Assembly (NCBI GenBank): GCA_048937405.1
Contig: JBHLNF010000001.1
Location: forward strand, 880,785-944,784
DNA length: 64,000 nt
Direction: 5' to 3'
DNA from: Promethearchaeota archaeon
GTDB lineage: Archaea > Asgardarchaeota > Lokiarchaeia > Sigyniarchaeales > SOKP01
The position numbers and the translations under genes are program-made. The notes beneath the pieces were generated by a model. That model worked only from the letters and a program-made list of their open reading frames with translations, was not told where the DNA came from and did not search any database. Below, piece by piece: positions 37,519 to 53,510 of this stretch (position 1 is the stretch's first letter; every line of letters starts with the position of its first letter).

Positions 37519-38267
37519 GACAAGTTCAGCTGGTCAACTATTTTAAAAATAAATCTTCCACAAAAAAGTTCATTTCCATTATTTTATTGTTTTATTCTTC
37601 ACTAAAGGAGGAAATTTATCTCGAATATTTAAATAATTCATTCTTTCTATGTTTTTATGAAAAATTTTCTCTTCCTCTCTACTATTCAATCAAATTATTA
37701 TAGATTTTATTAACTAAAAAGGGTTATGTTATACATTTATATTCATTTCACCTCAAAACCTAGATTATTGATTCTATGAACCTTGTTTATCACAATTTCC
37801 GTGAATGAGTAGTTAAGATAACAACAAAAAATCAATCTGGGAAAGTAAAAGTACCTATTCATGAAGATACTAAATAATTTTTTTCTTGTAAGTTCAAACA
37901 CGGTTTTAAGAACTTTTAAAATTATGATTTTTCCAAGAGGAACTTTTATGATTGAATCATCTTATTCCAAAATAACAATTCCTTCTTAATTATAATCTAG
38001 TTGACGTATTAAAGCTTAATATGCTTTTTCTTTTGATTTAGAATATATCGTTTTGACTAAATATGAAGTTTATGAATTATATCCAATTTTTTAAAATCAG
38101 AATTTATTGATTTCATTAAATATACTAATATACTTAGAGAAAATAATTTGAAAAATCTACCATTTTCAAAAGGGAAATAAAGGATGAATCTTTTGGAAGA
38201 CATCAAGAAAAATCTGGCTTTCTTTTAAACTTTTATTAGTGAAAATGAAAAAACTAATTTTAATAAT

Positions 38268-38500
38268 AATTCATAAATTAAATTCCCTACTTCTGAATAT
38301 ATTTTTTAAATTGTAAATATCAATATAAGGTTTTATAATATCTCAGAAAAATTTTTTTGATTTTCTGAATTAAAAAGATATAGTAGAATATGAATGAATT
38401 CATTGTCATTAAGGGTACTAGAGAAAACAATTTAAGAGATATTGATGTAAAAATACCATGTAATAAACATATGTTTATAATTAGTATTAGTTGGAGTGGT
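38268..38500 (+). repeat. Direct repeat copy A of uvrA promoter plus first ~37 codons (partner 41188-41420)
   Basis: Collinear alignment at offset 2920, e.g. gaattaaaaagatatagtagaatatgaatgaattcatt in both. Confidence 0.92.
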
Positions 38501-38512
38501 CATTATAAATAA
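38390..38512 (+). pseudogene. uvrA: Decayed uvrA 5' fragment
   Basis: MNEFIVIKGTRENNLRDIDVKIPCNKHMFIISISWSGHYK* vs intact MNEFIIIKGARENNLKDIDVKIPRNKLVVVTGISGSGK. Confidence 0.9.
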
Positions 38513-38556
38513 ATCCACAGTGTAAATTTAAATATAAAAAAAAATATAATTGAATT

Positions 38557-40986
38557 ATGGTAGTTCAAGATATCAAAATGTCTCCTCTTCAAGGGATTCC
38601 ATCTGAGAGGGTTAGAAAAATTAGAGATAAAATGTTGTCCCAACCCTTCGAATATGATCTTGAACGAGCCCGATGCTATTCGAGGATTTGGAAACAGATG
38701 GAAGATGCTCATCCCAGCATGAAAAAAGCCAAAGCTCTGGAGGAATTTTTACGCTGCCTTTCTATAAGGATTGATAGTGATGAGCTTCTTGTAGGAGTAA
38801 AATCCAGCAAAATTAGGGCTGATCCTTTTGAAATTGAACTTGGAAGGCACGTTCGAACTTATGATTTTCTCTTAGATGAATCAATAGATGAAGCAGCTAA
38901 AGATCATTTCCGTAGACGTAATCCTATCATTAGACGTTATGTTCCTCTTACAGAACAAGAGCTTAACGAATTGAAAAATGATATTATCCCCGTTTGGAAA
39001 GGAAAGACATTAGCTGATCGAAAAGAAGAGCTCTGGAAGGAAGCAGGCTTATTTAAGGAGAAAAATAGTTCTATGGAACGAGCTATGAGTTGGATTAACC
39101 CATTTTATGCGGAAATGCAAGGTCATACGATTCCAGGTTATAAACGAGTTCTTAATATAGGATTTAAAGGAATAGAAAAGAGAGCTACTGAAGAACTTAA
39201 AAAACTTAGAGAGACTGATGAGGATTACGAACAACGTAAGACTTTTTATGAAGCAGTTCAGGTTACTTCTCAAGCTGTTTGTGATTATTCCAATCGGTAT
39301 GCAGATCTCGCAATGGAAATGGCTAAAAATGCATCAGAATCAAGAAAGGTAGAACTTTTAGAAATTGCTGGGCGTACAAAACGAGTACCGGCCCTCCCAC
39401 CAAGAACATTCATGGAAGCACTTCAATCGATATGGCTGACGAATGTTGTTATGGAAATGAGTTATGGTGAGAGTAATATCTTTTCTCAAGGAAGAGTTGA
39501 TCAATATCTTTACCCCTATTATGCCACTGATTTAGCAGAGGGACGGATTACTTATGAGGAAGCTTTAGAAGCAATTGAAGAATATTTAGTGAAACTTGCG
39601 TCTGTTGTTATAGCTGGACAGAATAATATCACTATTGGAGGGTTAGATAAAGATGGAAATGATGCTACAAATGATATATCATATATGTTTCTTGAAGCTG
39701 TTGCAAATGTAAAAAGTTTATTGAATACAATATCAATACGGATTTCTTCCAAAACACCTCGGGATTTTGTGAAAAGAACTATTGAAGCTTTTAAATATAC
39801 CGGCGGAATGGGAATTCATAATGATGAAATTTTAGTACCACAGCTTCAAGAAGATGGCTATTCACTAGAACATGCCCGAGATTACTCACTCGTAGGGTGT
39901 GTAGAACCTCATGGTACAGGTTTTGATTTTTCATATACTGCTGGTAATGGTGTTCGATTGTCAATCGTTTTACATATGGCTTTAAATGAAGGACGAATTC
40001 TTATAGCAGGGAATCGTCAATTTGGAGCAAAAACACCTGATCCAAGTACTTTTAAAACGTTCGAAGATGTCAAAAAGGCTTTTGTAGATCAGCTTTCCTT
40101 TGGAGTAGATTTAGTTGTGAAAAAAGCAGAGTTAAAAGATCAGGCCTTTGCAGAAGGTTTTCCCTCCCCATTGCTTTCATCTACAATCGAAGGATGTTTA
40201 GAGAGTGGAAAAGATGTAACTCGAAATGGAGCGCGCTATAATAATAACCCTATTGGCTGCCAAGCATTAGCAACCGTAACCAATTCATTAGCAGCAATTC
40301 GCTGGGCAGTATTTGAAGAAAAATTAGTGACAATGGGAGAATTAGTTACTCATCTTAACAATAATTTCAAGGGAGCAGATAAAATTAGAGAACTTTTAAG
40401 AAATAAGGCTCCAAAATACGGTAATGGTGATGATCGTACAGACGAACTTGCAATATGGGTTGCGAATACCTTATGTGATATTGTGAGAAAATATCCTGCT
40501 AGAGGTGGTGCGGGTATTTATCGTACATATTTTGTATCTTCAGGTCTTAATATTCTTGAGGGTAATATGTTAGGAGCGACTCCCGATGGAAGATTATCTG
40601 GTGAAGCTGTTTCTAATGGCATATCTCCTGCAAACGGAACTGAGAAAAATGGTCTTACTATGACGCTCCGATCAGTAGCTTTAGCAACAAAAGACGCTCT
40701 CCTAACCGGTGGAGCAAGCATGAACATAAGAATCAATCCTAATTTATTAGAATCAGATGAGGGCTTAGATAAATTGACTTCTATTGTAGAAGCTTATTTA
40801 GAGTTAGGGGGAAGAGAACTTCAGATTAATCCTGTAAGTTCAGAAACATTAAGAGACGCACAAGCTCATCCAGAAAAATATTCTGATTTATCAGTTAAGG
40901 TAACTGGTTATTCTGCACGTTTTATAGAAATAGGCAGGAGACTTCAAAATGACATCATCACCCGTACAGTATTTAACGAATTATAA
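38557..40986 (+). CDS. Glycyl radical enzyme (PFL-like family, substrate unknown)
   Basis: GRVDQYLYPYY, Cys loop GCVEP, APKYGN, ATPDGR, glycyl loop KVTGYS. Confidence 0.92.
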   Translation: MVVQDIKMSPLQGIPSERVRKIRDKMLSQPFEYDLERARCYSRIWKQMEDAHPSMKKAKALEEFLRCLSIRIDSDELLVGVKSSKIRADPFEIELGRHVRTYDFLLDESIDEAAKDHFRRRNPIIRRYVPLTEQELNELKNDIIPVWKGKTLADRKEELWKEAGLFKEKNSSMERAMSWINPFYAEMQGHTIPGYKRVLNIGFKGIEKRATEELKKLRETDEDYEQRKTFYEAVQVTSQAVCDYSNRYADLAMEMAKNASESRKVELLEIAGRTKRVPALPPRTFMEALQSIWLTNVVMEMSYGESNIFSQGRVDQYLYPYYATDLAEGRITYEEALEAIEEYLVKLASVVIAGQNNITIGGLDKDGNDATNDISYMFLEAVANVKSLLNTISIRISSKTPRDFVKRTIEAFKYTGGMGIHNDEILVPQLQEDGYSLEHARDYSLVGCVEPHGTGFDFSYTAGNGVRLSIVLHMALNEGRILIAGNRQFGAKTPDPSTFKTFEDVKKAFVDQLSFGVDLVVKKAELKDQAFAEGFPSPLLSSTIEGCLESGKDVTRNGARYNNNPIGCQALATVTNSLAAIRWAVFEEKLVTMGELVTHLNNNFKGADKIRELLRNKAPKYGNGDDRTDELAIWVANTLCDIVRKYPARGGAGIYRTYFVSSGLNILEGNMLGATPDGRLSGEAVSNGISPANGTEKNGLTMTLRSVALATKDALLTGGASMNIRINPNLLESDEGLDKLTSIVEAYLELGGRELQINPVSSETLRDAQAHPEKYSDLSVKVTGYSARFIEIGRRLQNDIITRTVFNEL

Positions 40987-41309
40987 AATTAGCATCACCA
41001 TTATCTTCTTTGTCGTTAGATAATTTGCCCTTAAATTCTGTTCATTTATTCTATTGAGTAATTTTATCAAATTTATCAGTTTTTATTATATAAATTTTCT
41101 ATTTTTATCCTATAAAAATTCTGGATGCTTTTCAATAGAAATTAATTTAATAATATCCTAAATAAGTTTTTTAGGATTAAGATTAAAAATTCATAAATTA
41201 TTTACCCTGCATTTGAATATTATTTTTTAATTGTAAATATTAACAAAAAGTTTTATAATATCTTAGAAAAATTTTTTTGACTTTCTGAATTAAAAAGATA
41301 TAGTAGAAT

Positions 41310-44180
41310 ATGAATGAATTCATTATCATTAAGGGTGCTAGAGAGAATAATTTAAAAGATATTGATGTAAAAATACCACGTAATAAGCTTGTGGTGGTAA
41401 CTGGCATTAGTGGGAGCGGAAAAAGTTCCCTTGCAATGAATACATTATATGCAGAAGGACAGCGAAGATTCTTAGAGTCATTATCAAGTTATGCCAGACA
41501 ATTCTTAGGAGAGATGGATAAACCCGATGTAGATTCAATAGAAGGATTATCTCCCGCAATTGCAATTGAGCAAAAACCACTCTCAAAAAATCCACGAAGT
41601 ATAGTTGGGACAGTTACTGAAATTTATGATTATTATCGATTGCTATATGCAAATATTGGTATCCCTCATTGTCCGAATTGTGGAAAAGAAATAAAACCTC
41701 AAACACCACAGCAAATTATTCAACAGATCCTAGGAACAATAAGTGAAAATCAAAAATTTATTGTTAAATCTCCAGTTATACGAGATAGAAAAGGAGAATA
41801 CAAAGATCTTTTACAAGATTTAAAAAAACAAGGATATGTTAGAGTAGAAATTGATGGGATACAATATACATTAGATGAAGACATTTCTATGGAAAAGAAT
41901 GTTAAACACAACATTAATGTTATTATTGACAGATTAGTAATGCGAAAAGATATTAGAACAAGATTAGCTGATTCGATTGAGACTGCATTAGAACTATCAG
42001 AAGGGTTAGTAATTGTTGAGATTGTTGAAAAAACGGAACAAATTTATTCTGAACATCTTGCTTGTATTGATTGTGGAATTTCATTTCCTCCAATAGACCA
42101 TAAAATGTTTTCCTTTAATATTCCTCATGGAAGTTGTAAATATTGTAGTGGATTAGGTAATGTTATGGAATTTGACTATGGTTTATTATTAGGAAATGAC
42201 TTAGATGTTCCACTACAAGAAACTCCGATTAGAGATATTCCTGGTTTTGGATCTGAAAATGGATATTCCTGGCAAACTATAGTACAAGTTGCTAAACACT
42301 ATGGATTCGATACTAAGTATACTCCAATTAAGGATATTGATCCAAAAAAACTTCATAAAGTTTTGTTTGGAACAGAAAATGAATCAATTGATTTCCATTT
42401 TAAAAGTGATAATAATGAATATAAAAATCACAATGGAGAATTTAAATCTTCTTGGCAAGTGCTAAGGCCATTTGAGGGAATAATTCCAATTCTTCAAAGA
42501 AGATATATGGAAACTCGTTCAGAATGGGCTCGTGATGTCTATGAAAGTTTTATGAAGAGGATAAATTGCCCTCAATGCAAAGGTAAAAGGTTAAAACCTG
42601 AGAGTTTGGCTATAACGATAAAGGATCTTAATATTGCTGATTTATCTAACCTATCTGTAAAGGAATCCTTAAATTTTTTTAATAAATTACAATTAAATGA
42701 GACTGAAAAGATAATAGTTAAAGAAGTATTAAAAGAAATATTAGATAGACTATCTTTTCTTAAAAATGTGGGGTTAGATTACATAACTCTAAACCGTCGT
42801 TCAGATACACTATCTGTAGGGGAAGCTGAAAGGATACGATTAGCAACTCAATTAGGCTCTAGTTTAGTAGGTGTTTTGTATGTATTGGATGAGCCAAGCA
42901 TAGGATTACATCAAAGAGATGTCTCACGCCTCATTAAAATGCTAAAGAAGTTAAGAGATTTAGGAAATACAGTTATAGTAGTTGAACATGATGAGGCAAT
43001 AATGCGTAGTGCTGATCACATCATTGATTTAGGACCATTAGCAGGCGAAAGAGGGGGTGAAGTAGTAGCTGAAGGTCCGATAGAAACAATAATTAATTCA
43101 GATAGTTTAACAGGAGAATATTTATCAGGGAAAAAGAAAATTAATATTCCAAAAGCTAGACGCGAAATTAATAAAGATATAATTGAAATAATAGGAGCAA
43201 AAGAAAATAATTTAAAAGATATTAATGTAAAAATTCCTTTAGGTATATTTTCCTGTATTACTGGAGTTTCTGGGGCAGGGAAAACAAGTCTTATTATCGA
43301 TTGTCTATATAAAGGGCTTCATAATATAATAAACACTCGAAGTTCTAAACTAAATCCAGGAGAATTTGATAAAATTATAGGATACGAAAAAATAGATAAA
43401 ATTATAAATATTGACCAATCTCCCATAGGAAGAACTCCAAGATCTGTACCTGCTACTTATACAAAAGCATTAGATTACATTAGAGAAATCTTTGCTGGTT
43501 TGCCAGAATCTAGAGAACGAGGTTATAAGAAGGGAAGATTTAGTTTCAATACAAAAGATGGACATTGTAAAAAGTGTAAGGGTACAGGTTACATCTTGAA
43601 AGAAATGTATTTCCTCCCTGATGTGTATATCAAATGCGATTTATGCAAGGGTAAAAGATATAATGCTGAAACATTAGATATAAAATATCGCGAAAAATCG
43701 ATCTTTGATGTATTAAAAATGACTTTTCATCAAGCATTAGAATTCTTTGATAGTTTTCCAAATTTAAAGAGAACAATAAAAACTGTAGTAGATGTTGGAT
43801 TAGGGTATTTAGAATTAGGTCAATCCTCAACAACGCTTAGTGGTGGAGAATCACAAAGGTTGAAAATAGCGAGGGAGTTAAGAAAAACTAGTACTGGTAA
43901 TACATTATTTATTTTAGATGAACCTACAACAGGTCTCAGTTCGTTTGATATTAATTATTTATTAAGAGTTCTTCAAAAATTAGTAGATAAAGGTAATACT
44001 GTAATTATTATTGAACATAATATGGATATTGTAAAATCTGTCGATTATATTATTGATCTTGGTCCTGAAGGTGGTGAAAAAGGAGGTCATATTGTAGCTC
44101 AAGGTACTCCTGAAGCAATAATTACAAATAATAAATCCTATACTGCTCAATATCTTAAACCATATCTCAACTCCAAATAA
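41310..44180 (+). CDS. uvrA: Excinuclease ABC subunit A
   Basis: Two ABC cassettes (GISGSGKS, GVSGAGKT, LDEP), Zn fingers. Confidence 0.98.
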   Translation: MNEFIIIKGARENNLKDIDVKIPRNKLVVVTGISGSGKSSLAMNTLYAEGQRRFLESLSSYARQFLGEMDKPDVDSIEGLSPAIAIEQKPLSKNPRSIVGTVTEIYDYYRLLYANIGIPHCPNCGKEIKPQTPQQIIQQILGTISENQKFIVKSPVIRDRKGEYKDLLQDLKKQGYVRVEIDGIQYTLDEDISMEKNVKHNINVIIDRLVMRKDIRTRLADSIETALELSEGLVIVEIVEKTEQIYSEHLACIDCGISFPPIDHKMFSFNIPHGSCKYCSGLGNVMEFDYGLLLGNDLDVPLQETPIRDIPGFGSENGYSWQTIVQVAKHYGFDTKYTPIKDIDPKKLHKVLFGTENESIDFHFKSDNNEYKNHNGEFKSSWQVLRPFEGIIPILQRRYMETRSEWARDVYESFMKRINCPQCKGKRLKPESLAITIKDLNIADLSNLSVKESLNFFNKLQLNETEKIIVKEVLKEILDRLSFLKNVGLDYITLNRRSDTLSVGEAERIRLATQLGSSLVGVLYVLDEPSIGLHQRDVSRLIKMLKKLRDLGNTVIVVEHDEAIMRSADHIIDLGPLAGERGGEVVAEGPIETIINSDSLTGEYLSGKKKINIPKARREINKDIIEIIGAKENNLKDINVKIPLGIFSCITGVSGAGKTSLIIDCLYKGLHNIINTRSSKLNPGEFDKIIGYEKIDKIINIDQSPIGRTPRSVPATYTKALDYIREIFAGLPESRERGYKKGRFSFNTKDGHCKKCKGTGYILKEMYFLPDVYIKCDLCKGKRYNAETLDIKYREKSIFDVLKMTFHQALEFFDSFPNLKRTIKTVVDVGLGYLELGQSSTTLSGGESQRLKIARELRKTSTGNTLFILDEPTTGLSSFDINYLLRVLQKLVDKGNTVIIIEHNMDIVKSVDYIIDLGPEGGEKGGHIVAQGTPEAIITNNKSYTAQYLKPYLNSK

Positions 44181-44305
44181 TTAAATACAAATCCTAAAAA
44201 TTTTTTTAAAGCTTTAAACAAAATTCTAAACCTATAATAGATTTATTTATAATGCAAGTATTGTTAAACTATTTTAAATATAAAATCTGAAAATCGTGGT
44301 AAAAA

Positions 44306-44533
44306 ATGACAGATGAAATGAATAAGATAATTAGAGCACCTATAGTGTGTATTCTTGGTCACATTGACCATGGAAAAACTACTATATTAGATTATATCAG
44401 AGGTACTGTTGTCCAACCAAGAGAAGCAGCAGAGATTACGCAACATATTGGTGCATCATAATTTCCAATAGATGACATAAAGGAATTTTTAAGAAAATCA
44501 AAACAAGAATTTGCTGAAAAAGAAATAAAACTT
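44306..44533 (+). pseudogene. infB: Truncated aIF5B/infB 5' fragment with internal stop
   Basis: [75 protein letters not shown]; TAA at 44459-44461; absent from the ORF track. Confidence 0.93.
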
Positions 44534-44770
44534 GCACCCTTAATGATAATGAATTCATTCATATTCTACTATATCTTTTTAATTCAGAAAGTCAAAAAAA
44601 TTTTTCTACGATAGGATTAAACCTTATATTGTTATTTACAAATAAAAAATAATATAAAGAACCAGAATTTTTAATTTATGAATTATTTTCATTAAAATCG
44701 ATTCTTTTCTTCTTTATCCATAAATTCTTGAAGGAAAAATACAACTTTCTTAATATCTTCTAAAAGATTT
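44534..44770 (-). repeat. Third, inverted copy of uvrA promoter plus first ~10 codons
   Basis: 44534-44608 is the exact reverse complement of 41264-41338 (75 bp); weaker similarity continues to ~44770 against ~38187-38345. Confidence 0.9.
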
Positions 44771-45180
44771 TGAGCTCGCTCAAAAAAACTCATTTATACA
44801 ATACTAAATTAATCAGGATCAAGGTTAATATATTTAAAGAAGCCTTTAAAATTATTCAAGGTCGATGGATAATTGAGATTTATGATAAGGAAAAAATTTA
44901 CTAAACTCCAAACTATTGAAAAATCTACTCACGAATTCATTGCTCAAAAACCTGATGATCCTAAACATGCTAAAATATTCTTAAAAAGCATCTTAAATTT
45001 TATATGTTAATTTTTATTGATTTAAGCTGTAACGATGATTCTATATTAGAAGAAAATTAAGATTTAAAAACTTTTATTGAAGACGGTATTATTGAATCAA
45101 AAGGCGATGATTATTTGATCCCCTATGTTCAGAGTTCGTCATATCTAATCCCTTATGTTTTTTTAAGTGAAAACATATCC

Positions 45181-45990
45181 TTAACGTAAAAAACCATGAA
45201 TATTTTCAGAATAATTTAAGAAATTCTTTAAAGTTATTTCAGGATGGTGATAACGAGACCTTCCTTTTGTAGTTTTACCATATTGAATGGCTTCTTGTGG
45301 ACACCAATTCAAGCAGGCCATACATTGTTGACACTTATGATGCCATTGAGGTTTATCATTAATAATCTTTATATTTTGTACAGGACAAACTTTCTCACAA
45401 ATACCACAGTTATTACAGTTCTCTTTAACCCAAAACTTACGATCCATTTTTGGTATTTTTCGATAATTACCTTCTTGTAAAAGGTTCATAATTTTAATGT
45501 TAGCGCTTGAAATTTTTATATTTTTATGATTTTCTATAGTTTTACTAATCTCATTTACTTTTTGTTTTGCATTCTTAAATCTTTCTTTTTGATCTTCTTT
45601 TGATGATGGTTCATAAAGAGGTATATAATTACCAGGCATTAAGATAGCAAAACTTGCATTTAAACATTTTCCTTTTTCTTTAAGAACGTTGTTAATTATG
45701 TCAAACGTAGCTCCTAAGATTCTATGGTAAGTAGCGACAGTATATAGATAATCAATCTGTGTTAGATCAAGTATTTTTATAAAATCAGCTACAACAGGAG
45801 GAAGAGCATGAAAATATACAGGAAAGATGATTCCAGCAGTTTCAATTGGATATTTGATTTTTCCGTTAATTACATTTGGAATTGAGCAAATTAACGTATT
45901 CTTTAATCTCTGAGCAAGTTCTATACTTATTCTCAAAGAATTTCCAGTGCCTGAAAAATAAAAAATCCTATTATTTACCGAGATAGTCAA
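45181..45990 (-). CDS. Flavodoxin-like plus 4Fe-4S ferredoxin protein (EFR1 family)
   Basis: YFSGTGNS, FPVY, MP.NY, two CxxCxxCxxxCP motifs. Confidence 0.9.
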   Translation of the reverse strand: MTISVNNRIFYFSGTGNSLRISIELAQRLKNTLICSIPNVINGKIKYPIETAGIIFPVYFHALPPVVADFIKILDLTQIDYLYTVATYHRILGATFDIINNVLKEKGKCLNASFAILMPGNYIPLYEPSSKEDQKERFKNAKQKVNEISKTIENHKNIKISSANIKIMNLLQEGNYRKIPKMDRKFWVKENCNNCGICEKVCPVQNIKIINDKPQWHHKCQQCMACLNWCPQEAIQYGKTTKGRSRYHHPEITLKNFLNYSENIHGFLR

Positions 45991-46117
45991 TCAATTTCAC
46001 TCTCGTTTATTATTATATTAAAGTTAATATTGAGAATATTTCGTAATTCATATTCCATTTTATTTAAAAGCATACGAATATCAAGCCTGTTTATAAGTTT
46101 AATATCTTAATAAGGCT

Positions 46118-46690
46118 CTAATTTATTTTATTAAAGATAAAGGCATTAAACATGGGATTTTTTTTAATTTGTATTGATAAATGAAAATTTCTTGCGTAAT
46201 CTATAGGATCTACAGCCTCTGGGTGTGTTGGAAATTTCTTTCTTGCTATTTTAATTCTTTTACGAGTAGGTTCGAATATGCAAATAACACCGTTTGGTTT
46301 TATTGTGCGAACACATTCTTTAAACGCTGAAGCACTATCATCCATGTGATGGAGAGCTCCCATAACGAAAATTGCGTCAAATGATTCATCTTCAAAAGGC
46401 ATTTCTTCGGCATTAAATGGCTTAAAAGTTATTAAATGATCAACATTAAAGCTTTTGGCATTTTCTAGCCAATTTTGTTTAGCGTGCTCTGAATTATCAT
46501 TTTCAGGTTCTCCAGTAAGTACTTTAAAATTATTTAAAGCCAATGTAATTGCCATTCTACCTTTTCCCGTCCCTACATCCAAAATTTTTGCGTTCTTATC
46601 TAATTTTAAATCTTGAACGACGGGATTGATAATATCAAAAATAGAACTAAATTCATTCTCTAAAACATCTTTCATTTGTTCTTTTTCCAT
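46118..46690 (-). CDS. Class I SAM-dependent methyltransferase
   Basis: ILDVGTGKG, MPF.DESFD, ALHH motifs. Confidence 0.88.
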   Translation of the reverse strand: MEKEQMKDVLENEFSSIFDIINPVVQDLKLDKNAKILDVGTGKGRMAITLALNNFKVLTGEPENDNSEHAKQNWLENAKSFNVDHLITFKPFNAEEMPFEDESFDAIFVMGALHHMDDSASAFKECVRTIKPNGVICIFEPTRKRIKIARKKFPTHPEAVDPIDYARNFHLSIQIKKNPMFNAFIFNKIN

Positions 46691-46724
46691 TTTTTTCTAC
46701 TTTTTACTTTTCTTTTTCTTCTTT

Positions 46725-46858
46725 ATTTTTTTAAATTTTTATTTAAATTTTTTTAGTTCGATCTCTGATAGTACGAGATCTGATTATAATACATTAAACT
46801 TAATATTTAAAGATTTTGAATCACCTAAACTCGAACTATCTGGAAATAATTATCAATT
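46725..46858 (-). repeat. 134-bp inverted repeat, left arm (promoter/operator of the methyltransferase gene)
   Basis: Reverse complement of 47505-47638 with 2 adjacent mismatches. Confidence 0.95.
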
Positions 46859-46892
46859 CAGATTAAAGATTTAGATTAAAAAATAGCTTAAT

Positions 46893-47366
46893 TTATAAAG
46901 AATCTAAATTATCAAGCAATTTTTTAATTAATATGGATAATTGCTCGATTTCTTCAGGTTTAAAGTCCTTACAACAATTTATCATTAATCTTTCATTTGC
47001 AGGTATTGATTTACAAAGATTCATACCTTTATCTGTCAATTTAACGAATAGACTTCTCCTATCTTCTGGATTTGCTTTACGAATAACTAATCCTTTTTTT
47101 TCCATCGTATCAACAACTGATGTAATGGTTGATCTGGAAGAATAACAAATTTCTGCCAAATTTTTAAATTGAAGTTTACCATGTTTTTCTAGTTGTTCTA
47201 AAATAAAATATTGAGGAATAGTTAATCTAAATTTTCGAACTATTGGTCTTTGTAATTGGTAGAATTTTTTAGCAACTATATCAATTGATTTAAAAATCTC
47301 CTCAATTTTACTTGAGTTAACATTAATATTAGAACTACTAGAATAATGGTTTGAATTTTCATTCAT
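46893..47366 (-). CDS. MarR-family transcriptional regulator
   Basis: LT..QY.IL, T..VD.ME.KGLV.R....EDRR...V.LT..G. Confidence 0.92.
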   Translation of the reverse strand: MNENSNHYSSSSNINVNSSKIEEIFKSIDIVAKKFYQLQRPIVRKFRLTIPQYFILEQLEKHGKLQFKNLAEICYSSRSTITSVVDTMEKKGLVIRKANPEDRRSLFVKLTDKGMNLCKSIPANERLMINCCKDFKPEEIEQLSILIKKLLDNLDSL

Positions 47367-47504
47367 AGGTTATCAATGTAATAATTTTACTTTTAATTAA
47401 TTGTATTCTAATTATCTTATATGGTTTTTATTCTTATTATTTTTCTCTTATAATGAAGAAATTGATTCGAATTTATATACGCACTTATTAAAATTTATCA
47501 ATTT

Positions 47505-47638
47505 AATTGATAATTATTTCTGGATAGTTCGAGTTTAGGTGATTCAAAATCTTTAAATATTAAGTTTAATGTATTATAATCAGATCTCGTACTATCAGAG
47601 ATCGAACTAAAAAAATTTAAATAAAAATTTAAAAAAAT
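47505..47638 (+). repeat. 134-bp inverted repeat, right arm (promoter/operator of the C-GCAxxG-C-C gene)
   Basis: Partner of 46725-46858. Confidence 0.95.
47552..47603 (+). promoter_or_regulatory. Putative TATA box (TTTAAATA) followed by palindrome GATCTC-N9-GAGATC, candidate MarR operator
   Basis: Palindrome at 47583-47603 sits about where an archaeal TSS is expected; duplicated in the left arm. Confidence 0.55.
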
Positions 47639-47659
47639 CAACAAGTACAAGTGTATTAA

Positions 47660-48091
47660 ATGTCAAAAGTAGAACAAGCTGTTTCATGCTTTATGAAAGG
47701 ATTTTCATGTGGGCAAGCAATTCTTTCTACCTATGCAACAGAATTTGGATTAGAACGAGAACTAGCTATAAAGGCGGGTACTGGTTTTGGAGCAGGGATG
47801 GGTAGATTAGGTAAAACTTGCGGAGCAGTGACTAGCGCAATTCTAGTTCTCAGTTTAAAGTATGGAAGCAATAAAATAGATGAAAAAGCAAAAAATGAAA
47901 CATATGGCCAAGTTAAAAGATTCATAAAAAGTTTTATATCTGTTAATGGTTCAATTATTTGTAACGAATTGCTTGATTGCGATATTACCACTTCTGAAGG
48001 TATGAAGAAAGCAATTGATAATAATTTATTTAAAACTATTTGTCCTAATTTCGTGAGATCATCATCTGAAATCCTTGAACAAGTCTTATAA
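47660..48091 (+). CDS. C-GCAxxG-C-C family putative redox-active protein
   Basis: SC.QA, GFGAGMG, TCGAV, later C..C. Confidence 0.88.
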   Translation: MSKVEQAVSCFMKGFSCGQAILSTYATEFGLERELAIKAGTGFGAGMGRLGKTCGAVTSAILVLSLKYGSNKIDEKAKNETYGQVKRFIKSFISVNGSIICNELLDCDITTSEGMKKAIDNNLFKTICPNFVRSSSEILEQVL

Positions 48092-48324
48092 GAATATAAT
48101 AGTCTGTTTCACATTAAGAAATTTTGGTTAATTTTATAAATGAAAGATAAATTAACTGAAATTCATAAAACTGTTTTTATTTTACTTAAATAATATTTAC
48201 TTTTTAAATAAATAATTGATTGTCATTTTGGTTTCGAATCCCTCAAACTCGTGATAACTAAAAGAAATTAATTCGTGTTATACTTTATGTCCTCAATATT
48301 CTTTTTACAGTTTCTAATGTTTGG

Positions 48325-48579
48325 TAGTAGATAAAGGTAATACTGTAATTGTTATTGAACATAATATGGATGTTGTAAAATCTATCGATTATATTATTGA
48401 TCATGGTCCTGAAGGTGGTGAAAAAGGAGGTCATGTTGTAGCTCAAGGTACTCCTAAAGCAATAATTACAAACAATAAATCCTATACTGCTCAATATCTT
48501 AAACCGTATCTCAACACCAAATGATTAAATACTATTCCTAAAAATTTTCTTAAGGCTTTAAACAAAATTCTAAACCTAT
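48325..48579 (+). pseudogene. uvrA: Duplicated uvrA 3' end plus ~55 bp downstream (direct repeat of 43981-44235)
   Basis: 255-bp collinear match, about 10 substitutions in the coding part, mostly non-synonymous (e.g. DLGP to DHGP). Confidence 0.95.
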
Positions 48580-48685
48580 GGTAATTTAATTTTGGTTAAT
48601 ATTTCTCAAAATTAGAAGTCCTTCTATATTTTTAACACATAAATACGATATAAATATATGAAATTATTATTCAAATAATTTAATC

Positions 48686-50116
48686 ATGTCAAATAGAAAA
48701 AATATATATTGTACTATGGAAAAAAATTTTGAAAATAATAAGAAATGCAAAATAAACAGCATTACAAGATATAAAATTCAGTATGATAAATTAAAGACTA
48801 ATAATACTTTACAATTCATTGAAGATTTACTTATTGAGCTTCAAAAAAATCCTGAATTATTAGCAGATATCTTTCCAGAACGAGTAAAAAAATTTACGGA
48901 TAGAGCACTCTCTCGATTTTGGAATCGTCATGAAAGGTTTATTGATAAGTTGAAATTAAAAATAAAAAAATTCAACTCTGATAATAGTTTCACTTTTAAA
49001 GATCTAAATTATCTTAAAAATAAATATATCAATGATTTTAATGATAAAGCTCATGATTGTATGAGAATGATTAATAGTTATCAAAATAATGAAATAAATA
49101 CTCTTGAGTTTATTGAGCAATTTAAAATTGAATTAGGAAAAATTTCAGGCAAAATTGAAATATCTAAACAAGAATTGAGTATTTTATTTGGACATTACCC
49201 TGGATTTATATCAGAGATTATGTCAAAAATTAAAAAATCACATATTCAAAAGAGTTATCCTAATTATAAATTTTCTTTAGAAAATTTAAAAGATTTGGAG
49301 GAGAATCTCATCGAAATATCACATCCTTCTTTAAACAGATTTTTAAAACTAATCAATAAGTATAGAAGTCTTAATTCTAATTTAAAAGAATATTCAAAGC
49401 AACAATATACAATAAAAAATCCAAATTTATTTTCAGAAATCATTTTGTTATCTACTGCTTATTGGTATGGATTTCTTTGTGCTGATGGTTGGATTAGTAA
49501 AATTTGTGAAAATAAATATAGAATTGGATTTAAACTTGCTAAAAAAGATCGAGACCGAATTAATTCATTTGCTGATTATGTAGGTTTTAAACGAAACCGA
49601 ATAAGAGAAGTCTATCAATTTAGGAAGAATAATGAAGGTGAGATTAAATTATATGAAAGTCTTAGTATTGAATTTTGTTGTAAACCTATGTATAAAGATC
49701 TAATAGAACATGGTTTCGATGATTTTAAATCCAATAGAGAAGGTGTTCCAAAATTTGTGAAAAAAGCTATCAAACAAGCAAAAGAAGAAGTATTTAGTAC
49801 TAATCTTCATTGGTCTCAATCATTTGAGGGCAAAATAGCTTTTGCTTGGCTTCTTGGTTTTTATGATGGTGATGGTCGATATCGAGGAGGTTATTGTGCT
49901 GAACTATATTCTTCTAATAAAAAATTATTAGAAGAAATCAAGGAATTTTTTGAATGTCCAAATGAAGTAAGATTTTTAAGGGAACCAGGTGAAATCAAAT
50001 TAATTTTTAATAAAGAAACAATTTGTGAAGGTTATTATATTTTAACAACTGGTTCTGAGATATTTAAGTGTATGTTATTAAGTTATAGTAATAGTATGCA
50101 ACGAAAACGACCCTAA
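48686..50116 (+). CDS. Free-standing double-motif LAGLIDADG endonuclease with ~240-aa N-terminal extension
   Basis: AYWYGFLCADGWI and AWLLGFYDGDG motifs; no intein splicing motifs seen. Confidence 0.88.
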   Translation: MSNRKNIYCTMEKNFENNKKCKINSITRYKIQYDKLKTNNTLQFIEDLLIELQKNPELLADIFPERVKKFTDRALSRFWNRHERFIDKLKLKIKKFNSDNSFTFKDLNYLKNKYINDFNDKAHDCMRMINSYQNNEINTLEFIEQFKIELGKISGKIEISKQELSILFGHYPGFISEIMSKIKKSHIQKSYPNYKFSLENLKDLEENLIEISHPSLNRFLKLINKYRSLNSNLKEYSKQQYTIKNPNLFSEIILLSTAYWYGFLCADGWISKICENKYRIGFKLAKKDRDRINSFADYVGFKRNRIREVYQFRKNNEGEIKLYESLSIEFCCKPMYKDLIEHGFDDFKSNREGVPKFVKKAIKQAKEEVFSTNLHWSQSFEGKIAFAWLLGFYDGDGRYRGGYCAELYSSNKKLLEEIKEFFECPNEVRFLREPGEIKLIFNKETICEGYYILTTGSEIFKCMLLSYSNSMQRKRP

Positions 50117-50241
50117 CTTTTAACTTTTATATATTCCATTAACTTTTATTACAATAACATTGTTAAAATCAAAATACTTTTATTATTAGTGCAATATTAG
50201 TTTTAATTTTATAATAATTAACAAAAAAGTTTTGTGATAAA

Positions 50242-52044
50242 TTGATTGAACAAAAAAAAGTAATTAGAGCACCAATAGTATGTATTTTAGGACATATAGA
50301 TCATGGTAAGACTACAATATTAGATTATATCAGAGGGACAGTTGTCCAGCAACGAGAAGCTGCAGGAATTACTCAACATATTGGTGCATCTTATTTTCCA
50401 ACAGAAGATATCAAAGAATTTCTAAGAAAATCTAAACAAGAATTTGCTGATAAAGAAATTAAACTTCCAGGAATATTGGTTGTTGATACACCTGGACATG
50501 CTGCATTTCTAAATCTCCGAAGACGAGGTGGTGCTGTTGCTGATATAGCGATTCTTGTTATAGATATAACTGCGGGTACTATGCCAATTACTTGGGAATC
50601 TGTACGGATTTTAAGAGAAAGAAAAACACCTTTTGTTATTGCTGCCAATAAAATAGATAGATTATCTGGATGGAAATCAAAAAAGGATGCTGATTTTCTC
50701 GATTCCTATAATTCTCAAAAACCACACGTAAAAGATTTCTTAGATGAGAAAATTCTAGGTATTGTTGGTAATTTCTTAGAGGAGGGATTTAAGGGTATAG
50801 ATCGCTATGATAAAATAAAAGATTTTACAAAGAAAATAGCGATTGTACCAACAAGTGGTAAAACTGGAGAGGGTATCTCAACACTTTTAATGATTTTAAT
50901 GGGATTGGTTCAACAATATCTAACAATAAATCTTCAATTTTCAGAAGGATCAGCTAAAGGCGTAGTATTAGAAGTTAAAAAAGAGAAAGGTCAAGGAAAA
51001 ACAATGGATGTTCTTATTTATGATGGTATTATTAATAAAGGAGATGAATTTATTGTTGGAGGATTAGAAAAACCGATTAAATCTAAAGTAAGAGCTTTAT
51101 TAACTCCAAAACCTCTGGATGAAATTCGGGATCCAAGACAAAAATTTGATTCTGTTGATTTTATTAGTGCAGCAGCCGGTATTAAAATCCTCTCTCCAAA
51201 TATAGATGACGTCGTGGCAGGTTCCCCATTTAGAGGTATTAAAGATCCTTCTGAAGAAGAAACTATATATAAAGAAATTGAATCAGAAGTTGAAAGTATT
51301 AGGATAAAAACTGATAAAGCAGGGGTAGTTTTAAAAGCAGATACTTTAGGTTCATTAGAGGCATTGGAAAATCATTTTACAAAAAATGGAGTGAAAATAA
51401 GTATTGCGGACGTAGGACCAATTAAAAAAGAAGATGTTATAAATGCAAATATAGTTAAACAATTAGATCCTTATTCTGCTACAGTCTTAGGATTTAATGT
51501 ACAAATATTACCTGAAGCTAATGAACAATCTATTAAAGATAATATTCGAATTTTTACAAATAATGTTATTTATCGTTTATTAGAAGAATACATCGAGTAT
51601 GCAGAGATAAGAAAAGCAAAAGATACTGCTAAAGGTTTAAGTGAGCTTGTATTACCTGCTAAAATTAAAATGTTTCCTGAATTCATATTTCGAAATTCAG
51701 ATCCTGCGGTTTTTGGGGTATCTGTTGAAGCTGGGACTTTATATCCAAAAGTACAATTAATTACTGATAAAGGTAAACGTGTTAGAAGGATTCATCAAAT
51801 TCAAGATAAAGGACAAACACTCGAAAAAGCTCCTAAGGATTCAGAAGTGGCTATTTCTATTCGAGGTATTGAAATAGGTCGAGATCTTGAAAAAGATGAA
51901 ACTTTATATGTTTACATCCCAGAATCTCATGTTCGGCAACTTATGGGAAAATTTATTGATGAATTAACTACAGATCAAAAACAAGCTTTGAGAGAATTTG
52001 TCATTTTAATGCGTAAGGTAAATCACCCATGGTGGGGGATGTAA
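50242..52044 (+). CDS. infB: Translation initiation factor aIF5B (IF-2), no intein
   Basis: [37 protein letters not shown]; TTG start. Confidence 0.97.
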   Translation: MIEQKKVIRAPIVCILGHIDHGKTTILDYIRGTVVQQREAAGITQHIGASYFPTEDIKEFLRKSKQEFADKEIKLPGILVVDTPGHAAFLNLRRRGGAVADIAILVIDITAGTMPITWESVRILRERKTPFVIAANKIDRLSGWKSKKDADFLDSYNSQKPHVKDFLDEKILGIVGNFLEEGFKGIDRYDKIKDFTKKIAIVPTSGKTGEGISTLLMILMGLVQQYLTINLQFSEGSAKGVVLEVKKEKGQGKTMDVLIYDGIINKGDEFIVGGLEKPIKSKVRALLTPKPLDEIRDPRQKFDSVDFISAAAGIKILSPNIDDVVAGSPFRGIKDPSEEETIYKEIESEVESIRIKTDKAGVVLKADTLGSLEALENHFTKNGVKISIADVGPIKKEDVINANIVKQLDPYSATVLGFNVQILPEANEQSIKDNIRIFTNNVIYRLLEEYIEYAEIRKAKDTAKGLSELVLPAKIKMFPEFIFRNSDPAVFGVSVEAGTLYPKVQLITDKGKRVRRIHQIQDKGQTLEKAPKDSEVAISIRGIEIGRDLEKDETLYVYIPESHVRQLMGKFIDELTTDQKQALREFVILMRKVNHPWWGM

Positions 52045-52052
52045 TTAATTAA

Positions 52053-53510
52053 ATGCCCTCTATTAATGAGATTTTTAATGAAATTCTCATTGAAATAATT
52101 CCTACACGAAAAGAAATAGTTTTTATAGAGAATGTTATAAAAAAATTATATAATTTATTGTCTAAGAAAGCAGAAGAATTAAATATACATTATACAAAAA
52201 TAGAACCACAGGGTTCAACTGGTATCAAGCAAACACAATTAAAAAATGATTTTGACATTGATCTTTTTATAGGTTTAGATTATGACCAATTTAAACCTAA
52301 ATATCAAGGATTAAGTAAAAGTAAACTTAAAAAAGATTCTAAAAAAGATTTTTTAGCATTATGTAATAATTGGATTCTTCCAAGCTTAACTTTAAATGAA
52401 TTTAAGAAGCCACGCTTATTATATGCTGAACATCCATATGTTACAGTTGATTACCTTTTAGATGATATAAAAGTAAAAATTGATATAGTTTTATATTTTG
52501 ATTTAGATTTAGATTTTATTAAAAGGAATGGACCTATTACTGCTGTCGATAGATCACCCTGGCATGGCTGTTTTGTAAGAGATGAATTAACTTATGAACA
52601 AAAAAATGATGTTAGACTTTTAAAGCAATTCTTTAAATCCTGCTATAGTTATGGTGATAAAAGCGCAATAGGAAAAGTTGGTTTTATTGGTTATAGTGCT
52701 GAATTATTAATTTATTATTTTAATAATATAATAAATCTTTTCAGAAATTTTCATAAGTTAGATAAGTTAGTACTTGATTTCTATAAGAGAAATGAAGAAG
52801 AATTAAATAAAATTATCCATTTTCAGAAAGATTATCTTATCATTATAGACCCAATTGACAAAAATCGAAATGTTGCTTCAGCAATTTCCAAAAGAGCTTA
52901 TAAATATTGTAATCAAAAAGTAAGTGAATTCCTGAAAAATCCAAGTTCAGACTTTTTTAAGATTAAACCAATTACAGAAGTAGATTTATCAAATAAAGAT
53001 GATTCCCTCTTATCAAAAATTTATATTATCGAATTACAGAATACTAACTTTAAAGTCCATTATACTATTAATAGAGATAAGTTATATTCCTTAGGAGACA
53101 CTATAAAAGCTAATGGAGAACAAGAATTTTCTCACGTTGAACGTTTTGGTAAAATTATATTTGAAGTCTATTTCGAAGATGAGAAGGATGAATATAATAT
53201 AGCTATTTTTTGTGATAATCCTAATATTTCTGAATTTTATATTAGAAAAGGACCTCCAATTACAGAAGAAAGGCATGTTATCAATTTTAAAAAAAAAAAT
53301 CTGAATTATTTTGAGAAGGAGGGTTATTTATGGGTAAAAACTAAAAGAGATTTCAGTGATTTCTCTGAATTTTTAAAAGAAATTATTACTAATAAAATTC
53401 CTGATAATTTAAAAATTGTAAATTTATCATCTGCTTTTAATACTATAACTTCTTCAGGAAAGAAAGCAATAAACATCTTGAAAAAAATAGTTTTACCTTT
53501 CTATATTTAA
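52053..53510 (+). CDS. cca: Archaeal (class I) CCA-adding enzyme
   Basis: GS....T.L..D.DIDLF, YAEHPYV, TAVDRSPWH, GF.GY..ELL, DPID..RNVASA, GPP. Confidence 0.92.
   Translation: MPSINEIFNEILIEIIPTRKEIVFIENVIKKLYNLLSKKAEELNIHYTKIEPQGSTGIKQTQLKNDFDIDLFIGLDYDQFKPKYQGLSKSKLKKDSKKDFLALCNNWILPSLTLNEFKKPRLLYAEHPYVTVDYLLDDIKVKIDIVLYFDLDLDFIKRNGPITAVDRSPWHGCFVRDELTYEQKNDVRLLKQFFKSCYSYGDKSAIGKVGFIGYSAELLIYYFNNIINLFRNFHKLDKLVLDFYKRNEEELNKIIHFQKDYLIIIDPIDKNRNVASAISKRAYKYCNQKVSEFLKNPSSDFFKIKPITEVDLSNKDDSLLSKIYIIELQNTNFKVHYTINRDKLYSLGDTIKANGEQEFSHVERFGKIIFEVYFEDEKDEYNIAIFCDNPNISEFYIRKGPPITEERHVINFKKKNLNYFEKEGYLWVKTKRDFSDFSEFLKEIITNKIPDNLKIVNLSSAFNTITSSGKKAINILKKIVLPFYI

Follow-up and report, generated by a model that had tools for sequence, protein, structure and literature searches.

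A free-standing LAGLIDADG gene beside a mosaic infB 5' end and a relic of the empty site in a Lokiarchaeial genome

Introduction

Homing endonucleases encoded by free-standing genes have been described in T-even phages, where the Seg proteins belong to the GIY-YIG family and the Mob proteins to the HNH family, and their spread has been called intronless homing (PMC2988022; for SegB, PMC2330249). Here we describe a gene for a LAGLIDADG protein that lies between sequences of uvrA and infB (the aIF5B gene) in the genome of a Promethearchaeota archaeon of the class Lokiarchaeia. The stretch analyzed, which we call the window, comprises 64,000 nucleotides (assembly GCA_048937405.1, contig JBHLNF010000001.1, positions 880,785 to 944,784 of the forward strand), and its own numbering is used for the locus throughout. 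We denote the genome under study as G000, its nearest species as G001, and related species as G002 to G024; L-numbers refer to individual contigs or loci. Our reading, which we consider probable from the sequence comparisons, is that a free-standing LAGLIDADG homing endonuclease gene sits in the uvrA-infB spacer, that a block of the infB 5' end was transferred along with it, and that a second copy of the junction is the native allele, preserved by duplication.

The locus resembles the T-even phage systems in that the gene stands in a spacer between conserved genes and is present or absent among close relatives, and in that a stretch of a neighboring conserved gene is inherited with it, so that the putative cleavage site may lie at a distance, inside the neighbor. 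It differs in that the protein is of the LAGLIDADG family and of putative activity and in that the host replicon is a cellular archaeal chromosome; transfer would require DNA exchange between cells rather than co-infection. With the LAGLIDADG enzymes of archaeal rRNA introns and inteins (of the I-DmoI and PI-PfuI type) the protein shares a double-motif monomeric fold, acidic residues, and a weak LAGLIDADG_3 match, but it is associated with neither an intron nor an intein, has its own open reading frame (ORF), and carries an extra helical N-terminal domain of ~210 residues. LAGLIDADG homing endonucleases cleave long targets (~14-40 bp) at specific sites. Homing endonuclease genes are said to pass through a cycle of invasion, degeneration, and loss, the Goddard-Burt cycle. 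Consistent with such a cycle, the gene at this one locus is intact in G000 and L005 and reduced to a remnant in G008, and the site is empty in most species; unlike it, a relic of the empty site and a filled site coexist in one genome owing to a segmental duplication. Decay after invasion by a homing endonuclease is also described in a further report (PMC13619312).

Results

The junction between the uvrA 3' end and the infB 5' end is present twice in the window, and the spacer next to infB is 125 bp long in both copies (44181-44305 and 50117-50241). In copy 1, the intact uvrA gene (41310-44180, plus strand; 956 aa, with the Pfam families UvrA_inter, UvrA_DNA-bind, and ABC_tran and 92% protein identity to the uvrA of G001) is followed by a spacer with a TATA-like block that is conserved among endonuclease-free species, and then by a relic of the infB 5' end (44306-44536, plus strand). 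The relic begins with ATG and the N-terminus MTDEMNKII, has a stop codon at 44459-44461, and is cut off after codon 77. In copy 2, a dead uvrA 3' end (48325-48592, plus strand) is followed by the LAGLIDADG gene (48686-50116, plus strand), by a spacer that is common to L005 and G008 and unlike the spacers of empty sites, and by the live infB gene (50242-52044, plus strand; identified with Pfam), which has a TTG start.

The uvrA repeat, which on the left consists of the final 200 nt of live uvrA and the left part of the native spacer (43981-44248), is 93% identical to its counterpart at 48325-48592. Its 200-nt coding part has 10 differences, comprising seven non-synonymous changes, two synonymous changes, and a change from TAA to TGA; all 10 are derived in the dead copy, and residues specific to G000 are common to both copies. 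The rates of non-synonymous and synonymous substitution (dN and dS, by the Nei-Gojobori method) are both 0.048, giving a ratio (omega) of ~1. The dead uvrA end carries 14 differences in 255 nt, and one of its altered residues is otherwise invariant (L to H in IIDLGPEGG). The piece is a duplicate from the G000 lineage itself, and its decay has been neutral. High identity of the two uvrA copies ends at 44235/48579, and copy 2 resembles the empty spacers of other species for ~20 nt past 48579; it has kept a TATA-like block of infB at 48556-48570.

The infB repeat (44314-44536 and 50247-50469) is 83-85% identical, with 33 nucleotide differences that affect 31 of 70 codons, 23 of them silently. By the same method the pair has 24 synonymous and eight non-synonymous changes (dS, 0.90; dN, 0.051; omega, 0.06). 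Seven of the eight codons of the P-loop LGHIDHGK (44354-44377 and 50287-50310) differ, all silently. Five substitutions in 210 nt are private to the relic, the stop included, and its end at 44536 abuts an inverted copy of the uvrA leader and the initial 32 nt of uvrA (44531-44769, minus strand). As assembled, the junctions at 44536/44537, at ~44769/44770, and at 48324/48325 are illegitimate.

An earlier note on this DNA had described a junction occurring twice at these positions, with mostly non-synonymous uvrA changes as a sign of duplication and decay, ~29 of 68 infB codons different (~23 silently), a P-loop silently different in seven of eight codons, and a uvrA identity boundary at 44235/48579. 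Our recount agrees with it on these points; the omega values of the two pairs given above are for a comparison that it had proposed. Its account of both repeats stands, but it overlooked the inverted uvrA-leader fragment, four accessory genes and a third copy of the uvrA 5' end, both described below, and the ~20 nt of spacer similarity beyond 48579.

The ancestral state of the site is readily recognized in relatives. In 22 congeneric species the gene next after infB is the CCA gene, and uvrA lies no more than 1.5 kb upstream of infB in 21 of the 22. At the uvrA-infB spacer 17 of these species are empty, four have other cargo, and one has an endonuclease remnant; the 17 empty spacers are 87-126 bp long and contain the conserved TATA-like block, and infB there starts with ATG and encodes MTE.E.KIIRAP. 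Copy 1 is arranged likewise, and its N-terminus (ATG, MT...KIIRAP) is also of the ancestral type. Because uvrA and infB stand 87-126 bp apart in 17 of 22 species, copy 1 (the uvrA end, 125 bp, and infB codons 1-77) corresponds in sequence and layout to the ancestral empty site and is, on that comparison, the native, uninvaded allele of the G000 lineage, as had been supposed.

The block formed by the endonuclease 3' end and its spacer was found only in G000 and G008 among 54 species genomes of the genus, so that the gene is not fixed at this site but rare, with a patchy occurrence. In G008, uvrA and infB are separated by 1794 bp that include a 279-nt remnant, made up of the final 157 nt of the endonuclease gene and a 122-nt spacer, with 88% identity. 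An intact copy with 79% amino acid identity is present directly upstream of infB in L005, a contig from Loki's Castle sediment, where the upstream context differs. A scan of metagenomes for relatives added L100, a second contig of the L005 lineage that is 98% identical, and beyond L100 yielded two distant paralogues and no further endonuclease-linked infB alleles. L005 and L100 are 98% identical from ~1.07 kb upstream of the gene onward and unrelated farther upstream, with uvrA there in neither; the left flank of the gene has therefore been rearranged in the L005 lineage too.

Judged from its predicted structure, the 476-residue product of the ORF at 48686-50116 is a monomeric two-motif LAGLIDADG protein, and the ORF a free-standing gene for a homing endonuclease of putative activity. 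The motifs YWYGFLCADGW (residues ~259-269) and LLGFYDGDG (~389-397) are conserved in 19 homologues, and D267, D394, and D396 are invariant in that alignment, with an acidic residue at the end of each motif, where such residues serve metal binding and catalysis in this class of enzymes. An AlphaFold2 (AF2) model (predicted local distance difference test [pLDDT] score, 84.8) has a helical domain at residues ~38-250 and a double LAGLIDADG core at ~255-476, in which the motifs coincide with helices at 255-267 and 380-396, each followed by beta strands. With this model Foldseek returned 111 chains of the Protein Data Bank (PDB) at E<=0.001, and the 50 best shown all have the LAGLIDADG fold. The best matches include the bI3 maturase, I-AniI, PI-SceI, I-DmoI, I-SceI, and the TliVMA intein, the top ones with a probability of 1.0; by class they are homing endonucleases and their engineered variants, a maturase, and endonuclease-bearing inteins. 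The fold and the retained residues would be in keeping with endonuclease activity.

Similarity is fainter at the level of primary structure: the ORF matches Pfam LAGLIDADG_3 only at threshold (22.5 bits), and a sequence search of solved structures gave chance matches only. Several of the 20 database homologues carry LAGLIDADG_3, and the one homologue named by organism comes from a metagenome-assembled genome (MAG) labeled 'Promethearchaeia archaeon'. The N-terminal domain (48686-49440) is modeled as all-helical with a pLDDT of 87; it has no Pfam family, and its best structural match in the PDB (Z, 5.4) is within noise for helical proteins. A search of 43800-50600 detected no Rfam intron family, no Hint domain accompanies the endonuclease ORF, infB is uninterrupted, and the endonuclease ORF stands by itself, with the dead uvrA end on one side and infB on the other. 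These observations are those expected of the free-standing gene, without intron or intein, that had been proposed.

The three carriers of the gene or its remnant (G000, L005, and G008) have in common a TTG start of infB, an N-terminus (MIE..V) one codon shorter, and a ~125-nt spacer of their own; the endonuclease-free species and copy 1 have ATG and MTE.E.KI. Over the first 105 nt of an aligned 210 nt, copy 2 has five differences from L005, six from G008, and ~19 from G001; the sequence nearest to copy 1 is that of G001 (10 differences). Downstream, all along infB and the CCA gene, G001 is the closest relative of G000. A tree of the 5' 399 nt of infB places G000 with L005 (98) and G008 (86), whereas trees of the infB 3' part and of the CCA gene place G000 with G001 (97 and 94) and G008 with G005; the approximately unbiased (AU) test rejects a grouping of G000 with G008 in the 3' part (P = 0.033). 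MaxChi, run with permutation, locates one breakpoint at ~50322-50394 in the comparison of G008 and G001 (14:1 G008-like on the left and 82:161 on the right; P = 0.0005) and another at ~50571 in the comparison of L005 and G001 (41:15 L005-like and 15:36; P = 0.001). Between G000 and L005, dS is 0.21 in the endonuclease gene, 0.42 in infB 50245-50640, and 2.46 in 50641-50880 (Fisher P = 6e-6). Few nucleotide differences fixed between carriers and non-carriers were found beyond the start-codon region.

The endonuclease gene, the 125-bp spacer, and the first ~100-330 nt of infB (~80-330 nt by another estimate) appear to be one haplotype block that was transferred between species; the remainder of infB and the CCA gene have other affinities, and in G000 the rest of infB is G001-like. 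Homing may have been the cause of this mosaic structure.

Several further claims of the earlier note bear on this block. Its expectation that an infB 5' allele would co-segregate with the endonuclease gene holds in all three carriers, with significant breakpoints inside infB, and the separate trees of the two parts of infB and the comparison of junctions across relatives that it had suggested gave, respectively, the conflicting placements (L005 and G008 in the 5' part, G001 in the 3' part) and the patchy distribution reported above. Its interpretation of that allele as a recoded, cleavage-resistant version was not supported. Over the same codons, G000 and G001 have a dS of 0.90, no different from the value for the two infB copies, and infB identities of 79-87% are typical between species. 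Two synonymous versions of the P-loop are common in the genus: that of copy 1 is 1 nt from the versions of G001 and G011, and that of the carriers is 1-2 nt from those of the endonuclease-free G023, G002, and G019. These observations do not support a special recoding for resistance, and the silent differences are best explained as those between two alleles of different ancestry; the P-loop may be a resistance determinant, but its carrier codons are also those of non-carriers.

The P-loop, a possible target, lies inside the most tightly shared tract. The conserved spacer and promoter block at the insertion point is a candidate target at least as good, and if the target were there, insertion alone would give immunity. 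We would place the target on the infB side of the endonuclease gene.

Of 24 relatives, 11 have members of the endonuclease family; the copy number is 0-4, several copies have internal stops, and G000 has four. One paralogue lies between the S6e and L7Ae genes in G000 (L003; contig 7, 997791-998594), G001 (as a pseudogene), G024, and G012. The 1.5-kb flanks examined in the other species showed no sign of it, and in nine of these a distance of ~0.7-1.2 kb separates S6e from L7Ae and contains no match to the endonuclease. Elsewhere among Lokiarchaeial families, S6e is the gene immediately downstream of infB, so that the two paralogues adjoin genes that neighbor each other there. A third paralogue (L004; G000 contig 20, 3037-3906) adjoins IF-2B-family and DUF1848 genes, and the fourth (L002; G000 contig 28), which has an internal stop, lies between NosD-like and DeoC-like genes. 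By its distribution, this Lokiarchaeial family is small, patchy, multi-copy, and often pseudogenized, and it behaves as mobile DNA would.

The remaining features of the region surround this core. Between the inverted uvrA-leader fragment and the dead uvrA end is a cargo block (44770-48324) with four accessory genes identified with Pfam: a Fer4/flavodoxin-like gene (45181-45990, minus strand), a methyltransferase gene (46118-46690, minus strand), a MarR gene (46893-47366, minus strand), and a C_GCAxxG_C_C gene (47660-48091, plus strand). No syntenic counterpart of the block was found in relatives, and in exact-protein look-ups neither the C_GCAxxG protein nor the products of two ORFs that span junctions had a record. 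The MarR gene is enclosed by 170-nt inverted repeats (46703-46872 and 47491-47660, 91% complementary) that end beside the methyltransferase and C_GCAxxG genes, both of which point outward. A perfect 75-bp inverted repeat (41264-41338 and 44534-44608), inside a 157-nt repeat that is 86% identical overall, flanks uvrA and suggests either recent gene conversion or an invertible 3.2-kb segment. The third copy of the uvrA leader and its 5' end (38187-38499, plus strand), which has decayed, lies upstream of a PFL-like glycyl-radical-enzyme gene (38557-40986). On the other side, infB is followed by the gene for the CCA-adding enzyme (52053-53510; Pfam). The G+C content of the window is 29%.

Discussion

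If the LAGLIDADG gene was inserted into the uvrA-infB spacer, double-strand-break repair with co-conversion, the process termed intronless homing, would leave the block pattern that we observe. Homing of this kind would call for cleavage of alleles that lack the gene and resistance of those that carry it. The segment that spans the junction, comprising the uvrA 3' end and the infB 5' end, would have been duplicated along with a 3.8-kb insertion (the inverted uvrA-leader fragment and the four accessory genes) through illegitimate junctions, and both redundant fragments would have decayed after the duplication. Copy 1 would have survived because this segment was duplicated, and the similar neutral decay of both fragments fits a single event as the source of the relic and the dead uvrA end. 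As to the order of duplication and invasion, we infer that one of two routes was taken. A duplicative insertion of cargo might first have copied the stretch that begins in the uvrA 3' end and stops at infB codon 77, with homing into the live copy thereafter; alternatively, two chromosomes of one lineage, one with the endonuclease gene and the other free of it, might have recombined. Under either route copy 1 would be the pre-invasion allele. Several single, simple rearrangement histories fit, among them a Campbell-type integration of a circle and an inverted uvrA insertion followed by inversion via the 75-bp repeat, and none is decisive. The notion of a fossil empty site kept upstream thus needs some revision: copy 1 does represent the native allele, but it was not simply left behind by homing, as it is bounded by the illegitimate junctions of a cargo insertion.

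A number of observations weigh against homing as the agent. The AU test does not reject monophyly of G000, L005, and G001 in the 5' 399 nt of infB (P = 0.083) or a grouping of G008 with G005 in the 5' part (P = 0.38), and there is no sign of co-conversion on the uvrA side of the endonuclease gene, where the dead uvrA end is of the own lineage. An apparently intact endonuclease gene coexists with the empty-site relic in one genome; an enzyme active on the relic sequence should have led to its being cut or converted. The N-terminal domain is almost neutral between G000 and L005 (omega, 0.91). The locus also receives other insertions. A GNAT acetyltransferase gene (~140-155 aa) occupies the same spacer in G002 (L039, 928-1350), G013, and G024, with a remnant in G018; from its content it is an independent insertion at the same site, and a search of the enlarged spacers of these four species for endonuclease remnants found the GNAT sequence instead. 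At the uvrA 5' end, the glycyl-radical-enzyme gene is bracketed by 236-bp direct repeats that are 86% identical and comprise the uvrA leader and the first ~110 nt of uvrA (38187-41419), and ~5.5 kb separates uvrB from uvrA in G000, genes that are adjacent in G001. Since this similar insertion lacks an endonuclease, duplicative insertions at the locus do not need one, and with the GNAT gene it argues that the locus recombines for reasons not requiring homing.

All of this would suit a passive role for the gene, in which a recombination and insertion hot spot at uvrB-uvrA-infB moves it as cargo and the nuclease is inactive or irrelevant to the mosaic. We regard this explanation as possible but doubtful, for the LAGLIDADG domain evolves under purifying selection (omega, 0.34, G000 versus L005) and the aspartates of the putative catalytic center do not vary. 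The family shows a pattern of invasion, decay, and loss at two independent sites, and the shared tract is short, begins at the gene, and enters the conserved neighbor in three different backgrounds. The opposite and more ambitious proposal, which we consider unlikely, is that an active endonuclease homes intronlessly between Lokiarchaeial cells at the promoter and 5' end of the aIF5B gene and that its breaks also seed aberrant repair, helping to build the hot spot and leaving the relic as a failed homing event. The native infB would then have been truncated after codon 77, just before the DTPGH motif, and the inverted filler captured together with the cargo block.

Two other explanations seem to us far less credible. 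The position directly upstream of infB and the large extra helical domain would be compatible with a domesticated protein, vertically inherited and lost in most species, that acts as a regulator by a WhiA-like logic or as a maturase-like factor for infB expression; LAGLIDADG folds have been recruited as regulators elsewhere (PMC3384342). Such a history is highly improbable for a gene found at the site in 2 of 54 species genomes, one of them with a remnant, whose acidic residues are retained, whose paralogues are scattered and pseudogenized, and whose neighbor infB has a mosaic phylogeny. An assembly chimera, in which reads of an endonuclease-free and an endonuclease-bearing strain were joined in one contig, has to be considered because G000 is a metagenome-type assembly (4.47 Mb in 29 contigs, with 5.7% contamination; the window lies within contig 7). 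We give it hardly any credence. Both fragments are decayed pseudogenes, not live alleles; the junctions carry an inverted filler of 239 nt and 3.6 kb of unrelated genes, which a collapse of strains does not produce; and 48476-50310, with the variants peculiar to the dead uvrA copy, is matched at 100% by L073, an independent contig built from short reads. Four sequencing runs from two studies contain 78-95% of the sampled words of 43900-50500. An exact 36-nt pattern across the junction 48324/48325 had no match in JGI metagenome contigs.

Invasion of the spacer by a homing endonuclease gene, with co-transfer of the infB 5' block, would extend a phenomenon with a narrow documented range. Free-standing homing endonucleases that co-convert a neighboring essential gene are documented mainly in T-even phages, for GIY-YIG and HNH enzymes, and in the literature that we searched we found no account of homing by a free-standing LAGLIDADG gene in Asgard archaea or in the chromosome of any archaeon. 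The mosaic found here is a caution for the use of infB/aIF5B as a phylogenetic marker, since its 5' end can be of mixed ancestry in this genus. An active protein would offer new LAGLIDADG scaffolds with an N-terminal domain of no recognized family, and the locus would then provide a natural pair of substrates, one native and one invaded, within one genome. It would also show in a concrete case that Asgard archaeal cells and species exchange DNA and recombine it homologously.

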